Below, in pieces: positions 9,220 through 11,778 of a stretch of 64,000 nucleotides of DNA (positions are counted from its first letter, which is position 1; every line of letters begins with the position of its first letter). The DNA comes from a virus (lineage: Duplodnaviria; Heunggongvirae; Uroviricota; Caudoviricetes), in the IMG/VR virus record IMGVR_UViG_2703718774_000012; one strand, 5' to 3'. The notes under the pieces are model-generated. The model did not search any database. It was not told where the DNA came from and saw only the letters and a program-made list of their open reading frames with translations. The translations under genes were made by a program, and so were the position numbers.

Positions 9220-9921
9220 TTATTCTGATTCTCGCTCAAAAAATGAGCTGATAAGGGGAAGCCAATCCTCTGACACTTCGCGAGGTCGCGGTTTGCCGTG
9301 GAAAAAGATTATTCGGCAGTCTTTTGGTAATGCCCCATTCCCCCAGGAGTAACGCGCGCTCGCATATTTTGAACCAGGTTCCACAACATCGGCCTTGTAA
9401 CTTACAAACCATCCTGGATACAGATCCTGAAATGCTGGTGTATCATCGCCCATAACCTTTCGTAAGAACCCCTGGTCACCCCAGCACTCAGTAGTGACAC
9501 AACGAGAAATCCAACCTTCCGGATCTTGCCAGAATGAACTCCAGATATGCGCTTTAACACTATTTGGTATCCACAGGGCACCGCTGCCACGATATTGTGG
9601 ATGGTAAAAATCCCTAAGCATGGTGAAGCTGGTTGGTGGATGCTCTAGGATTGGGCGTATATCACCGGCAATAACCGTGTCCAAATCCAGATAGAACAGA
9701 TCATCGGTTATATCCGGTCGGAACAACTCGATTTTCGCCCACCAGCCACGGCACTTTTGCCACTGGTTGATCAATGGGATAACTTTGACGCCAGGTACAT
9801 GTAAACACTTCAGGTCTGTCAGGCAAATAATTTCATAGTCTTTTGGCAGTTGATTAACCAGCCACTGCACATCGGAAGCGTTATAGTCACCACCAGAGCG
9901 AAGAACTAAAGCAATCTTCAT
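9220..9921 (-). CDS. putative glycosyltransferase (GT-A-like, DxD motif)
   Basis: [13 protein letters not shown] resembles DxD nucleotide-sugar transferase motif; inference. Confidence 0.4.
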
Positions 9922-10610
9922 GCTGCACCATCACCTTTCACTTTCATCAATGTCAGGTTTCCGCAAAATACGGCACCAGTGTCGATATACTGCTGATTCC
10001 AGAATGTCTTCGGGCTTTTCACCGGAGTGTGACCAAAGATAAAACGATCTGCGCCCGAAATTTCGCCACCAATATCATCCATCGAATCACTGATACGCTC
10101 GCGCGCCCAGACAACGTTGAAAAGCGGCACCTCCTTACCGAATTGGTATTCATTATCCGGATAGTCGGCATGGGCTATAACGATAGTTTCTTGCCCGGTG
10201 TTCAACTCAATGATATAGGGCAGACGCTTTACCAGCTCCACCAGCGCCCTGGCTAATATTTCCTGATCAGTGTCCAGCATGAAGAACCATTGTCCGCCAT
10301 TCATTAGCCAGTTATTCACGTTGCCATCAGGACTTAACGCATCGAGCATCAACCGCTCATGGTTCCCCATCACTGCCCTGAACCAGGGCATCTGCAATAG
10401 TTCCAGACATTCGACATTTTCAGTACCGCGATCGATAAGGTCGCCGACCGATATCAGTAAATCCTGCGCCGGGTCAAAATCCACACGATGGAGTTCGGAC
10501 ATCAGTCTGGTGTAGCAACCATGCAGATCACCAACAACCCAGACATTCCTGTATTTGGTACCGTCGATACGGTGATAAATTGTGGGTGCCATCATGTATT
10601 CTTCAGCCAT
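9918..10610 (-). CDS. Ser/Thr protein phosphatase (lambda-PPase / calcineurin-like)
   Basis: Signature GDLHGC ... GDLIDRG ... GNHE motifs present in order. Confidence 0.75.
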
Positions 10611-11218
10611 TCTTTAAGAGTCATCTGCGGAATACCTCCCATTTTCCCGCATGAAACAACGTCAATCTGTTCACGCGCAGACTGGAATAACAAAGGCAGG
10701 TGACTTAGATTTTTTGGCGTGCCGCCGGAGTGAACGCGTAGTTCTTGCGTAGCGTCAACGCCCACCAGAGCTACATGTTTGAATCCGATATGGAAAGCCA
10801 GGTTCAGAGCACCATATGCACTATTGCCGCTGGCAATTTCATTCTCATCTTCGCAAAGGCCGAAATGTGCGGACCAGCGCCACGCCCACCACTCGGGAGA
10901 ATTCGTATTTTTTGGCTCCATGCCGCGTTCAGCCACACGACGGAAGCACAGAACGCCATCTCTGACTTCACGTTCTTTAACATCGGGTAGTGCCATGCAA
11001 TAACAAACACCACGGCGACGGCGGCCACGACCAACGCGCCGCATATTGTCTGGGGATGGATCAAGGGTGAAAAAATAAGAAGCGCGGTTAAGCCAGTCGA
11101 TGGCCCCATTGACCGCTATAATCGGCACTCCGCGCGGCGCAACAAAGTTTGCGGCGCTTGGGCCACTGCCGACGATAATAACGCGATCACTGCCTCTAAA
11201 TTTATTCTTGGGAAACAT
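10592..11218 (-). CDS. MptE/DUF115-like (Maf-like) Rossmann protein, paralog 1
   Basis: [10 protein letters not shown]...[10 protein letters not shown] dinucleotide-binding-like motif; tandem paralog of next gene; family assignment tentative. Confidence 0.4.
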
Positions 11219-11778
11219 TGAATTGCACTGCTCCTACTTGCATTCAAAATATGTAAATCTGCGTGTTTTTTGCGGGTATCCAGGAACTGCTGTTGCCATT
11301 TTGAAATAGACACCTGCGTTGGATTCCGTAGTGCTTGAGGGTGCGCGCCATGCCAATGAAGGCCGTTTTGCAGAGAACAGTCATAGCCGACTAATACCAC
11401 TACTTCAGCCCCTGATTCAGCAGCCAGACTGATAGCCTGCGCGCCGCTATTTACCCCTTCCGCCGGTCCACAATATCGCCTGTACTCCAACGAAAATGAT
11501 TTCGCCGCCGCCAGGTTGGCTGTCACTTTGCGGAACCTCCCTCCCGGTATGGTGGAACCGTATTGCTTCCACCATGACAAATCACCGGCGTATAAGGCAT
11601 AAATGTCATCGAACATCTGCCAGGAATTGTTAACCGCGATGATTGAACAGCCAGTTTTTTCTATAGCAGCACAGTCCTCACGAGTGAGTGACGGACCGCT
11701 ACCGACACAAAAAACAGTCCTAGTCGCCCTGGGTGGTATGTTCATTCTCAGCTGCAAATTCAGCCTCCAGGTGAGCAT
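11116..11778 (-). CDS. MptE/DUF115-like (Maf-like) Rossmann protein, paralog 2
   Basis: VFCVGSGPSLT...IIAVNNSW aligns with paralog 1; ~100-nt overlap with downstream gene suggests start/stop uncertainty. Confidence 0.4.
   Translation of the reverse strand: MLTWRLNLQLRMNIPPRATRTVFCVGSGPSLTREDCAAIEKTGCSIIAVNNSWQMFDDIYALYAGDLSWWKQYGSTIPGGRFRKVTANLAAAKSFSLEYRRYCGPAEGVNSGAQAISLAAESGAEVVVLVGYDCSLQNGLHWHGAHPQALRNPTQVSISKWQQQFLDTRKKHADLHILNASRSSAIQCFPRINLEAVIALLSSAVAQAPQTLLRRAECRL

Follow-up and report, generated by a model that had tools for sequence, protein, structure and literature searches.

The Maf flagellin O-glycosyltransferases for nonulosonic acids are much larger, multidomain proteins than those considered here, built around a central DUF115 (PF01973) domain (the chain of PDB 5MU5 has 632 residues), and the literature links them to flagellin and nonulosonic acid synthesis genes. 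WaaZ, the Kdo-III transferase of E. coli K-12 lipopolysaccharide (LPS), which we take to be CAZy family GT73, is a single-copy enzyme of 283 aa that is encoded in the waa cluster and uses CMP-Kdo as its donor. GT8 enzymes, among them glycogenin, Skp1 alpha-GalT, LgtC, GlyE, and WaaO/WaaJ, share a GT-A fold, a DxD motif, and a C-terminal His-Gly-x-(K/R)-P motif. Some adhesins have dedicated cytoplasmic glycosyltransferases, as in AIDA-I/Aah, HMW1/HMW1C, and SRRP/GlyE. In phages, Freeman and colleagues are said to have found in 2023 that mycobacteriophage-encoded glycosyltransferases add O-glycans to the C termini of capsid and tail-tube proteins. The glycosyltransferase (and methyltransferase) genes of these phages are expressed with the structural genes and are not essential for plaque formation, and virion glycosylation in mycobacteriophages is echoed in a further report (PMC11256854).

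Few phages are as heavily used or as well annotated as bacteriophage P1, yet the genes described here carry the name "putative morphogenetic function" or, probably wrongly, "alpha-2,3-sialyltransferase." Our analysis turns three of them, pmgO, pmgP, and pmgQ, into a defined, testable three-enzyme unit (O-P-Q) that has thousands of metagenomic relatives and is often wired into head operons. The enzyme families and the (Gram-negative) hosts differ from those of the mycobacteriophage systems, and the donor proposed for the putative glycan is Kdo.

Layout and enzymes of the P1 locus

The window, which is the whole 64,000-nt stretch of DNA analyzed, comes from bacteriophage P1 (99.5% identity to AF234172/NC_005856). 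The four minus-strand ORFs in which an earlier note had seen a candidate glycosylation cassette are P1 pmgQ, ppp, pmgP, and pmgO. These genes and the features that bear on them are as follows.

9153 to 9218: C1 operators Op86b (9153-9169) and Op86a (9202-9218) together with promoter PpmgR, immediately beyond the stop codon of pmgQ
9220 to 9921, minus strand: pmgQ, 233 aa, predicted from sequence and model to be a GT8-like GT-A (retaining-type) glycosyltransferase; phrog_1962
9918 to 10610, minus strand: ppp, 230 aa, lambda NinI-type Ser/Thr phosphatase; Metallophos, 8.7e-16; phrog_246
10592 to 11218, minus strand: pmgP, 208 aa, second MptE/Maf-fold enzyme; phrog_2111; PF01973, 3.4e-4
11116 to 11218, minus strand: overlap of 103 nt shared by the 3' end of pmgO and the 5' end of pmgP, which is read in the -1 frame
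11116 to 11778, minus strand: pmgO, 220 aa, first MptE/Maf/sialyltransferase-fold enzyme, with a conserved core at about residues 20 to 205
11720 to 11875, minus strand: pmgN, small ORF of 51 aa, first in the transcription unit under C1 control, that overlaps the start of pmgO (P1 annotation and ORF list)
11919 to 11935, plus strand: C1 operator Op83 ("Oppp"), upstream of pmgN (P1 annotation; the site in the window is identical to the reference)
12817 to 12833: operator Op82 (operator match)
12848 to 12866, minus strand: LPpmgL, a late promoter that precedes pmgL (placed from the P1 annotation by coordinate offset)
17704 to 18702, minus strand: dbn, separate gene in the ban operon, weakly similar to C-terminal domains of GT-B (GT1/GT4-type) enzymes

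The upstream VRR-NUC/TraR pair was correctly recognized, with pmgM encoding the VRR-NUC protein and pmgL a DksA/TraR-type zinc-finger protein. The four ORFs do lie on the minus strand, but the idea of one operon needs qualifying, in that Op83 and a predicted promoter split pmgL-pmgM from pmgN-pmgQ. The position of Op83 upstream of pmgN implies that the genes are repressed in the lysogen and expressed once it is induced, and LPpmgL with Op82 could allow late read-through into the cassette. The 3' limit of the cassette lies at Op86b, Op86a, and PpmgR, where the head-morphogenesis genes pmgR and pmgS begin.

The last 20 to 30 or so residues of PmgO, which are encoded within the overlap with pmgP, are not conserved. 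Enterobacterial relatives keep the overlap and the PmgP start MFP...IIV(A/G)SGPSA, and in one relative (L003) pmgO and pmgP are fused in frame. We considered whether a programmed -1 frameshift might join PmgO to PmgP, found no support for it, and leave it as speculation. The overlap holds two X_XXY_YYZ heptamers (at 11215 and 11203), and coding constraint would explain any conservation of the first, T_TTC_CCA, which falls on the conserved M-F-P with which PmgP starts.

As the earlier note had supposed, PmgO and PmgP are tandem paralogs. Both carry the GSGPS motif (VGSGPSL in PmgO and VGSGPSA in PmgP), and in each family its P-S is invariant or almost so. The relationship is invisible to BLASTP beyond this N-terminal motif (E = 0.003), but profile-profile comparison recovers it over 162 columns (hhalign, 98.2% probability, E = 5.5e-14, 23% identity), with PmgP a distant paralog of PmgO that has an insertion of about 35 residues. 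Their assignment to the MptE/DUF115 family falls below threshold for the P1 proteins themselves, with PF01973 scores of 23.4 and 20.9 bits against a gathering score of 34.6, but it stands for a relative: the PmgP-like half of a PmgO-PmgP fusion protein, P0051, exceeds this gathering score (44.6 bits). Many PmgO and PmgP homologs carry precomputed PF01973 matches. The fold agrees as well, being common to Maf and MptE. All fold comparisons were made against PDB libraries, in which Maf was the best structural match to PmgO and PmgP, and Cst-I and GT29 enzymes also matched; the PmgP profile matched no PDB sequence. Relative to Maf, with which they share 16% identity, PmgO and PmgP are bare catalytic-type domains of about 200 aa that occur in phages, always as a pair accompanied by a GT8-like enzyme. 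None of the cassette loci examined showed flagellar or Pse/Leg genes. The two most conserved motifs align with GNGPSL and SG...G(I/Y)D of the Campylobacter sialyltransferase Cst-II (GT42, like Cst-I), a similarity that is not significant (E = 0.27 to 0.5).

The pyrophosphokinases MptE and TPK have the same fold, which counts against reading PmgO and PmgP as transferases. It is nevertheless improbable that the two proteins are MptE/TPK-type pyrophosphokinases, or nucleotide-binding proteins with no catalytic role, and that their link to PmgQ has nothing to do with glycans: the best fold match is a glycosyltransferase, the sialyltransferase structures match too, and the top two motifs are those that align with Cst-II, if only at E-values of about 0.3. 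Moreover, one or more GT-A transferases almost always accompany the pair, sugar-type methyltransferases often do, and a KdsB or KdsB-like gene is linked to it in two relatives.

That glycosyltransferase genes lie here is not a new idea, since RefSeq and PHROGs already call pmgQ "glycosyltransferase" and pmgO "alpha-2,3-sialyltransferase." Because E. coli K-12 is not known to make CMP-Neu5Ac, the latter name, taken literally, is probably wrong for P1.

PmgQ is the DxD-containing, GT-A-like protein of the earlier note, and its profile, fold, and invariant motif all support that description. D79-L80-D81 is invariant in 42 homologs; in GT8 structures it aligns with IDADA (6mw5) and MDADT (glycogenin). 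In the C-terminal FHGKPRP, H208, G209, P211, and P213 are nearly invariant, and the segment aligns with HFLGQTKPW of glycogenin, a motif of the H-x-x-G-x-x-K-P-W type. The family profile matches the PDB sequences of Skp1 alpha-GalT (9e-9) and glycogenin (4e-5), and the AF2 model (pLDDT of 94.7), which has a GT-A fold, matches GT8 structures in Foldseek at 7e-9 to 1e-7 with probability 1.00, including LgtC, GlyE, and WbbM. PmgQ has no Pfam or NCBIfam match at E ≤ 0.1, the Glyco_transf_8 model included, and the evidence consists of a PHROG family and profile-to-PDB matches, so we term it GT8-like rather than a member of GT8. It also differs from the GT8 enzymes in its shorter length (233 aa), low identity (about 14%), TM-scores of 0.5 to 0.58, and membership in a family of its own. 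From sequence and model, PmgQ would be a retaining hexosyltransferase that uses UDP-hexose.

The cassette in other phages and in chromosomes

O-P-Q recurs as a conserved cassette among unrelated phages whose hosts are Gram-negative. This finding is new here, as are the capsid-adjacent loci, the interleaving with adhesin genes in Pseudescherichia, and the presence of a cytidylyltransferase gene near two P1-like cassettes. The first pass of a viral-contig scan returned P1 copies only, and with a distant reference sequence it gave a few useful non-P1 loci; among cluster representatives from metagenomes, PmgO alone has 7,582. Our literature searches found no papers on DUF115 glycosyltransferases in phages and nothing relevant on hdmB/C/D, the gene names used in P7.

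Almost every complete non-P1 locus holds all three genes, and most have them in the order O-P-Q; the exceptions are three permuted loci (L098, L178, and L179) and the chromosomal loci, in which the genes are split. Double-domain proteins of the P0051 kind recur, and PmgO and PmgP are probably a heterodimer, since the pair always occurs together, whether in tandem, overlapping, or fused. Accessory genes are common, including an extra GT-A gene ("GTX"), a GT2-like gene, SAM or FkbM methyltransferases, and a sulfotransferase, and one PmgO is fused to a TylF-type sugar O-methyltransferase. The hosts of all 17 genomic loci are Gram-negative.

In seven loci from HK97-type prophages or phage contigs, the cassette directly follows the major capsid gene and precedes the head-completion genes, so that glycosyltransferase genes are embedded among structural genes as in mycobacteriophages; in P1, the cassette lies beside pmgR/pmgS. 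The cassette ORFs of L008, and those of L091, which is nearly identical to it, are tightly packed in the head operon. Ser/Thr/Pro-rich small ORFs also occur between capsid gene and cassette, an observation that is suggestive at most. In further phages, the cassette adjoins lysis, terminase, or portal genes, and in one Bacteroidota phage it sits among nucleotide-metabolism genes, a position that counts against a virion target.

In five chromosomes of Pseudescherichia/Enterobacteriaceae (about 80% nucleotide identity), genes for an inverse-autotransporter adhesin and two further Big_1 proteins lie interspersed among O, P, and Q, and one PmgO homolog is fused to Big_1/Big_13-like domains. This arrangement resembles that of AIDA-I/Aah-type pairs, in which an adhesin gene has its own glycosyltransferase gene; the enzyme families are different, and the likeness comes from gene context.

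Donor and acceptor of the putative glycan

Most likely, the donor for PmgO and PmgP in E. coli K-12 would be CMP-Kdo, the sole CMP-activated ulosonic acid available there. A KdsB equivalog (CMP-Kdo synthetase) is encoded a few genes from the cassette in one relative (L005; TIGR00466, 270 bits against a cutoff of 155), and a partial gene for a KdsB-like CTP_transf_3 cytidylyltransferase (1.4e-16) is similarly placed in another (L092); on sequence grounds, these genes point to CMP-Kdo rather than CMP-Neu5Ac. WaaZ, whose donor is the one proposed here, matches the same MptE-like profile, PF01973, nearly end to end (6.9e-7, positions 4 to 166 of 171). Compared with WaaZ as a single sequence, the profiles of PmgO and PmgP give weak hhalign probabilities of 11 to 19%, aligning at a core motif, NSG...A..LG...I.L.G.D, and P0051 has a faint precomputed match to WaaZ_KDO_III (PF27901). 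When expressed in E. coli, Maf enzymes use CMP-Kdo to place Kdo on Ser/Thr (PMC11339370). This donor promiscuity of Maf is the sole precedent that we found, and no protein is known to carry Kdo natively.

Our best explanation, held tentatively, is late-expressed O-glycosylation of proteins, in phages those of the virion, from CMP-Kdo and UDP-hexose. The genes pmgO-pmgP-pmgQ would form a self-contained, horizontally mobile cassette for building a glycan, in which PmgO and PmgP are a pair of transferases with the Maf/sialyltransferase/WaaZ fold. Made in the cytoplasm during lytic growth, under C1 repression and with late-promoter read-through, the enzymes would attach a short Kdo/hexose glycan to proteins, and we infer that in phages these are most likely the virion structural proteins made at the same time. 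In relatives with an extra GT-A enzyme, methyltransferase, or sulfotransferase, the glycan would be extended or capped. It would be dispensable for plaques and act as a surface coat with effects on shielding, stability, or adsorption.

Gene context and dispensability are consistent with this reading. The P1 cassette abuts pmgR/pmgS and has a late promoter upstream, which counts in favor of a virion target. A CRISPRi study scored pmgO, pmgP, ppp, and pmgQ as non-essential and cites a 2022 knockout study as finding the same for each; in its collective statement, the latter reports 24 of 29 knockouts with neither a plaquing nor an antirestriction defect. Dispensability of pmgO, pmgP, and pmgQ fits a role in decoration. 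Several observations run the other way. Among them are the sub-threshold Pfam scores of the P1 proteins and the weak direct alignment with WaaZ. No P1 virion glycoprotein has been reported, and the 2022 LC-MS/MS virion proteome, in which glycosylation was not sought, makes no mention of one ("glycos" occurs 0 times). The capsid proteins of cassette-bearing phages are unrelated to one another, the C termini of cassette-adjacent capsid proteins have no obvious Ser/Thr-rich acceptor tail like that in mycobacteriophages, and the GT8 neighbors of PmgQ include both LPS/LOS enzymes (LgtC) and protein-directed ones. The more specific proposal, that virions of P1 and a broad set of Gram-negative phages bear a Kdo-containing O-glycan for which a mini-Maf heterodimer transfers Kdo to Ser/Thr and the GT8-like enzyme adds hexose, and that the same trio glycosylates Ig-like (Big_1) adhesins in some Enterobacteriaceae, is doubtful as a whole.

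The earlier note had left the target among DNA, virion, and host surface. Of these, the comparative context favors proteins, with the lipid A-core of LPS as the main rival, a possible acceptor though on balance an unlikely one. Under that alternative, PmgO and PmgP would add inner-core Kdo as WaaZ does, and PmgQ a hexose as do the GT8 enzymes WaaO/WaaJ/LgtC; the core that serves as the P1 receptor would be altered or truncated, and infected or lysing cells, debris, and vesicles would stop adsorbing progeny or superinfecting phage. The place of WaaZ in the MptE-like superfamily and the faint WaaZ_KDO_III match of P0051 speak for it, as do the LPS/LOS transferases within GT8, with LgtC among the structural matches to PmgQ, the KdsB or KdsB-like gene in two relatives, and the restriction to Gram-negative hosts, all of which have the Kdo2-lipid A acceptor in common, whereas capsid proteins are not shared. 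However, no waa genes were seen beside the cassette or the chromosomal homologs examined; those homologs adjoin adhesin genes, and the 14.5-kb locus that was examined showed neither waa nor O-antigen genes. The P1 genes are C1-repressed and the HK97-type prophage copies lie inside late structural operons, so the enzymes would be active just in the final minutes ahead of lysis, when LPS already on the surface cannot be replaced. Classical LPS-converting genes, by comparison, lie near attachment sites and are expressed in lysogens. Plaquing, moreover, is normal in the knockouts. A change of the core has precedent in that WaaZ-dependent Kdo-III glycoforms lack its terminal GlcIII-HepIV disaccharide (PMC6358824) and, by the title of Frirdich et al. 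(2003), waaZ overexpression truncates the outer core.

It is unlikely that the acceptor is instead a host (non-virion) protein or another cytoplasmic molecule, glycosylated during infection for takeover or anti-defense, with the cassette a moron whose position in structural modules is incidental. The cassette is mobile and occupies several kinds of site (in the lysis region, following the portal gene, and next to RNR genes), its genes are non-essential in laboratory hosts, and the chromosomal homologs appear to serve bacterial proteins, all as such a role would have it. But no candidate host target emerges; the packing in the head operon of L008/L091 and the seven HK97-type placements among head genes argue for co-function with structural proteins; and antirestriction is unchanged in the 24 knockouts without a plaquing defect, as the 2022 knockout study states for them collectively.

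The same collective result speaks against DNA glycosylation (hypermodified bases) as a protection against restriction, a very improbable reading and the least likely of the targets. In the one Bacteroidota phage, the cassette lies beside RNR genes and an ORF judged from its sequence to encode dCMP deaminase. Enzymes that form 5-hydroxymethyl-pyrimidines were, however, not seen beside the cassette in P1 or in any prophage locus examined, and none of the known Maf/sialyltransferase-fold enzymes that were matched acts on DNA. P1 DNA is routinely cut and cloned, and to our knowledge no hypermodification of it has been reported. Hypermodification of DNA by phage glycosyltransferases does occur (bioRxiv 10.1101/2023.12.21.572611).

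The acceptor determines what the cassette means for phage biology. A glycan on the virion would extend virion glycosylation from mycobacteriophages to phages of Gram-negative hosts, could reveal native O-linked Kdo on protein, and would bear on antibody recognition in phage therapy, on P1-based delivery vectors, and on phage stability. Were the coat to contain Kdo, it would be the first native Kdo-protein glycosylation and the first virion glycosylation system beyond the actinobacteriophages. A modified LPS would point to receptor masking in the lytic cycle. The small PmgO, PmgP, and PmgQ enzymes would also be of interest to E. coli glyco-engineers.

The phosphatase gene and dbn

The proposal of a phage glycan-modification system is supported for PmgO, PmgP, and PmgQ, which resemble one in cassette structure and folds, and it is not supported for dbn and Ppp. 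A GT-B-like gene was correctly noticed near ban (17704-18678), but it is dbn, which ends at 18702, and its GT-B likeness is weak, with no link to the cassette. Its Glycos_transf_1 match (1.5e-5) reaches 25.0 bits against a gathering score of 26.4. The separate operon, these sub-threshold GT1 matches, and the lack of any match among PDB sequences led us to reject dbn as a part of the system; the gene was scored as non-essential in the CRISPRi study.

Ppp is the lambda-type phosphatase that it had been taken for, Metallophos/NinI-like, but it does not belong to the glycosylation system. Only P1 and its close relatives (L105, L120, L128, L170, L171, and L173) have the gene between pmgP and pmgQ, and at every locus outside this group the cassette occurs without it (within L003-L005, L008-L010, L091-L099, and L163-L179). 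We take ppp to be a nin-type gene, unrelated to the cassette, that entered the P1 lineage at a site between pmgP and pmgQ. In phage D6, a ppp gene with 90% identical DNA sits alone in a nin-like context, without the cassette.

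The P1 locus and its control

The region belongs to bacteriophage P1. From position 9000 to 12800, the window shares 99.5% nucleotide identity with the P1 reference (AF234172/NC_005856), and its identity to a further 16 records of the P1 group, P7, SJ46, and RCS47 among them, ranges from 97.7 to 99.5%. A 9-nt in-frame difference in pmgM, which specifies 189 amino acids (aa) in the window and 192 aa in the reference (570 versus 579 nt), makes the aligned stretch 3801 rather than 3810 in length. The ORF list and the P1 annotation both place four minus-strand ORFs where an earlier note on this DNA had read a glycosylation cassette, downstream of a VRR-NUC/TraR pair that corresponds to pmgM and pmgL.

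Genes and control sites of the region (window positions)
9153-9218, C1 operators Op86a/b, directly after pmgQ
9220-9921, minus strand, pmgQ
9918-10610, minus strand, ppp, lambda NinI-type metallophosphatase
10592-11218, minus strand, pmgP
11116-11778, minus strand, pmgO
11720-11875, pmgN, upstream of pmgO
11919-11935, C1 operator Op83, preceding pmgN together with a predicted promoter
11942-12511, pmgM, VRR-NUC, upstream of the cassette
upstream of the cassette, pmgL, DksA/TraR-type zinc-finger protein
upstream of pmgL, late promoter
downstream of pmgQ, pmgR, pmgS, and pap (HAD phosphatase)

The four genes share a strand, but the stretch is not the single simple operon originally described, in view of Op83, the predicted promoter, Op86a/b, and the late promoter. 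Repression of the cassette genes by C1 implies that they are expressed in lytic growth. The C1 operator consensus has 9 matches within the window, versus 0.33 expected by chance; further strong matches lie at 23269-23296 (an overlapping inverted pair), 27579-27595, 42532-42548, and 44203-44219, and this distribution agrees with the C1 regulon of P1, which is known to be scattered.

Each of pmgO, pmgP, ppp, pmgQ, and dbn is nonessential by CRISPR interference (CRISPRi), and a 2022 knockout study is cited there to the same effect (PMC10695390). The P1 knockout paper reports collectively that 24 of 29 single-gene knockouts lacked a plaquing or antirestriction defect, and it does not mention glycosylation; in the text consulted, PmgC and PmgG alone among the Pmg proteins are given as virion-associated (PMC9024508). 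The upstream gene pmgN is essential by CRISPRi (efficiency of plating [EOP], 1.4e-2) but nonessential in the knockout study cited there, and CRISPRi of the genes downstream of it, pmgO to pmgQ, produced no defect (PMC10695390); off-target action or interference with the promoter/operator region could account for the mismatch.

Glycosyltransferase genes in P1 are not a new idea, since RefSeq and PHROGs already name pmgQ a "glycosyltransferase" and pmgO an "alpha-2,3-sialyltransferase." Our literature search found no paper that treats pmgO, pmgP, and pmgQ as a unit, proposes their donor or target, or notes the comparative findings on them. These findings comprise the conserved cassette, the paralogy and fusion of PmgO and PmgP, the exclusion of Ppp, the link to kdsB, the placement in head modules, and an adhesin-linked chromosomal version. 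The cassette sits in a flagship model phage for which mutants already exist.

Cassette membership and predicted enzymes

Homologs of PmgO, PmgP, and PmgQ co-occur across the neighborhoods sampled (3 PmgO homologs, 3 more distant homologs, 13 non-P1 viral contigs, and 17 bacterial genome loci), and most loci retain the O-P-Q order, the exceptions being three permuted loci (L098, L178, and L179) and the chromosomal loci, which are split. The reading of this region as a glycan-modification system is partly supported, but without two of its proposed members. Ppp is indeed a lambda-type (NinI-type) phosphatase, but it lies between pmgP and pmgQ only in P1 and close relatives; elsewhere this slot holds a sulfotransferase, a GT-A-like gene (GTX) either alone or together with a GT2-like gene, or a methyltransferase, and in many phages it is empty. 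In phage D6, a ppp 90% identical in DNA stands among nin-like genes with no cassette nearby, and we therefore exclude Ppp. Dbn, the GT-B-like protein also assigned to the system, is likewise rejected: its gene belongs to the ban operon, unlinked to the cassette (and ends at 18702, not 18678), and the protein has only subthreshold GT1-type matches and none among PDB sequences.

GTX is a recurrent fourth gene of many non-P1 cassettes; no copy was detected in P1. It encodes about 192 aa, with an N terminus of the form ..VSF(F/Y)TDNW.YP and weak similarity to Nucleotid_trans (GT-A).

Locations of GTX in cassette loci
L003, 9757-10335
L008, 8254-8835
L094, 8555-9139
L099, 9222-9797 (with a GT2-like gene besides)
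L169, 2159-2731

The GSGPS motif is present and conserved in both PmgO and PmgP, and the designation of these proteins as MptE/Maf-like is correct. Each reaches only subthreshold scores against PF01973 (MptE-like). Whereas BLASTP aligns their N termini alone, comparison of the two family profiles (32 and 38 sequences) extends over 162 columns with 98.2% probability (E = 5.5e-14; 23% identity) and places an insertion in PmgP. By this comparison, the two are genuine and ancient paralogs. The GNGPSL and SG...G-I-D motifs of Cst-II align with the two strongest motifs of the PmgO/PmgP family, at a nonsignificant E value of about 0.3.

In L003, PmgO and PmgP form a single 376-aa polypeptide (P0051), whose PmgP-like half scores 44.6 bits, above the Pfam MptE-like threshold, and the 7,582 representatives matching the PmgO profile include other proteins in which a PmgO-like domain repeatedly occurs twice. 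The functional unit, judged from sequence, is evidently a pair of MptE/Maf-type domains. In P1, the 3' end of pmgO overlaps pmgP by 103 nt (11116-11218), with pmgP in the -1 frame. As in P1, the pmgP frame of enterobacterial relatives extends upstream through a conserved IIVASGPSA into the 3' end of pmgO; the tail of PmgO that the overlap encodes lacks conservation. Just past the pmgP ATG, the pmgO frame contains two X_XXY_YYZ heptamers, T_TTC_CCA (11215), which falls on the conserved M-F-P with which PmgP begins, and A_AAT_TTA (11203); a -1 slip there, itself speculative, would yield a fusion resembling P0051. The PmgO homolog of L092, a P1-like viral contig, is broken into two ORFs that overlap (6857-7404), probably because the gene is a frameshifted pseudogene or the sequence contains an error; PmgP and PmgQ are intact.

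The DxD proposed for PmgQ is real, D79-L-D81 being invariant in 42 homologs. Although profile searches returned no Pfam or NCBIfam match and PmgQ falls outside the curated GT8 profile, a profile of these homologs matches the solved structures of Skp1 alpha-galactosyltransferase (9e-9) and glycogenins (~4e-5), with the DxD and a C-terminal H-G-K-P-type motif aligning to GT8 structures. Its AlphaFold model (pLDDT, 94.7; pTM, 0.92) retrieves Skp1-GalT, glycogenin, LgtC, GlyE, WbbM, XXYLT1, and LARGE1 at 7e-9 to 7e-7. On the strength of these profile matches, aligned motifs, and structural matches, PmgQ is predicted to be a GT8-like GT-A transferase, probably of the retaining type. A kinase-type activity of PmgO and PmgP is very improbable.

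The sugar donor

To our knowledge, all glycosyltransferases of the PmgO/PmgP fold use CMP-activated ulosonic acids. WaaZ, which transfers Kdo-III to lipopolysaccharide (LPS) in E. coli, aligns with positions 4 to 166 of the 171 in the MptE-like profile (6.9e-7), and P0051 has a faint WaaZ_KDO_III match. In two P1-like relatives without ppp, a cytidylyltransferase gene lies a few genes downstream, one (L005) a KdsB equivalog at 270 bits (cutoff, 155) and the other (L092, 11154-11750) a partial, KdsB-like CTP_transf_3 ORF. The hosts of all genomes found are Gram negative (Gamma-, Beta-, and Alphaproteobacteria and one member of the Bacteroidota). P1 grows on K-12, where, so far as we know, CMP-Kdo is the only CMP-sugar. 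Maf enzymes expressed in E. coli have been shown to add Kdo to Ser/Thr from the endogenous CMP-Kdo pool (PMC11339370; bioRxiv 10.1101/2020.06.03.131540). Together, these lines of evidence suggest that CMP-Kdo is most likely the donor for PmgO and PmgP.

In L005 (12658-13892), the KdsB (CMP-Kdo synthetase) gene directly precedes and overlaps a pap-like HAD phosphatase gene, and the KdsB-like ORF of L092 occupies the same region, so Pap (7077-7583 in the window; Pfam match HAD_PNKP, 7.8e-12) might be a KdsC-like sugar-phosphate phosphatase with Kdo-8-P as its substrate, and not an "acid phosphatase" or PNKP-type enzyme.

The acceptor

The known kinds of system to which this one is related are protein O-glycosylation of the Maf type, glycosylation of phage virions, and LPS conversion. 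We tentatively favor a protein acceptor, that of the virion, at somewhat less than an even chance. The major capsid gene and the head-completion genes directly flank the cassette in seven HK97-type loci. Five of these have identified hosts (Pseudomonas, Gilvimarinus, Martelella, Zhongshania, and a Methylophilaceae bacterium), and two are viral contigs, of which one is almost the same as the Pseudomonas prophage. At L008 and L091, the ORFs are tightly packed. In other phages, the neighbors of the cassette are lysis, terminase, or portal genes; in P1, it abuts pmgR and pmgS. The lytic-growth expression implied by C1 repression points the same way.

Modification of LPS is rather unlikely. In its favor, the closest analogues in function are WaaZ and the GT8 core enzymes, Kdo2-lipid A is the sole acceptor that all these hosts share, and P1 uses the LPS core for adsorption. 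In the Kdo-III glycoforms that depend on WaaZ, the terminal disaccharide of the core is missing (PMC6358824), and waaZ overexpression truncates the outer core, according to the title of Frirdich et al. (2003). However, expression confined to late lytic growth is ill suited to remodeling LPS already at the surface, and the chromosomal locus examined showed neither waa nor O-antigen genes.

A protein acceptor is also favored by five Pseudescherichia/Enterobacteriaceae chromosomes whose DNA is only about 80% identical at this locus. There, three large proteins of a surface type are interspersed among the O, P, and Q homologs: an inverse autotransporter of 1,177 aa (IAT_beta and seven Big_1 domains) and another two large Big_1 proteins. 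The gene order at L164 (261-13963; also L163 and L166 to L168) is a 690-aa protein without assigned role, PmgO-like, the inverse autotransporter, PmgP-like, PmgQ-like, Big_1 (781 aa), and Big_1 plus RCC1 (999 aa). The last two share an N terminus and have no obvious signal peptide. Such a locus may represent an adhesin-glycosylation island, uncharacterized so far. Fusions occur as well: one PmgO homolog carries Big_1/Big_13-like domains, and another carries a TylF-type sugar O-methyltransferase.

Targets of other kinds, protein or cytoplasmic, are improbable, and DNA, included among the targets first proposed, is scarcely credible. The significance of the cassette rests mainly on possible virion glycosylation in phages of Gram-negative bacteria and on possible native protein-linked Kdo.

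Between the HK97-type capsid gene and the cassette are small ORFs with a shared N-terminal ...LI.K.LAVP motif and long, low-complexity tails rich in Ser, Thr, Pro, and Ala (e.g., PTEPTEPTEP repeats in L009); they could encode head-decoration proteins or candidate O-glycosylation substrates.

Small ORFs between capsid gene and cassette
L009, 6166-6555
L010, 5654-5941
L097, 5061-5357
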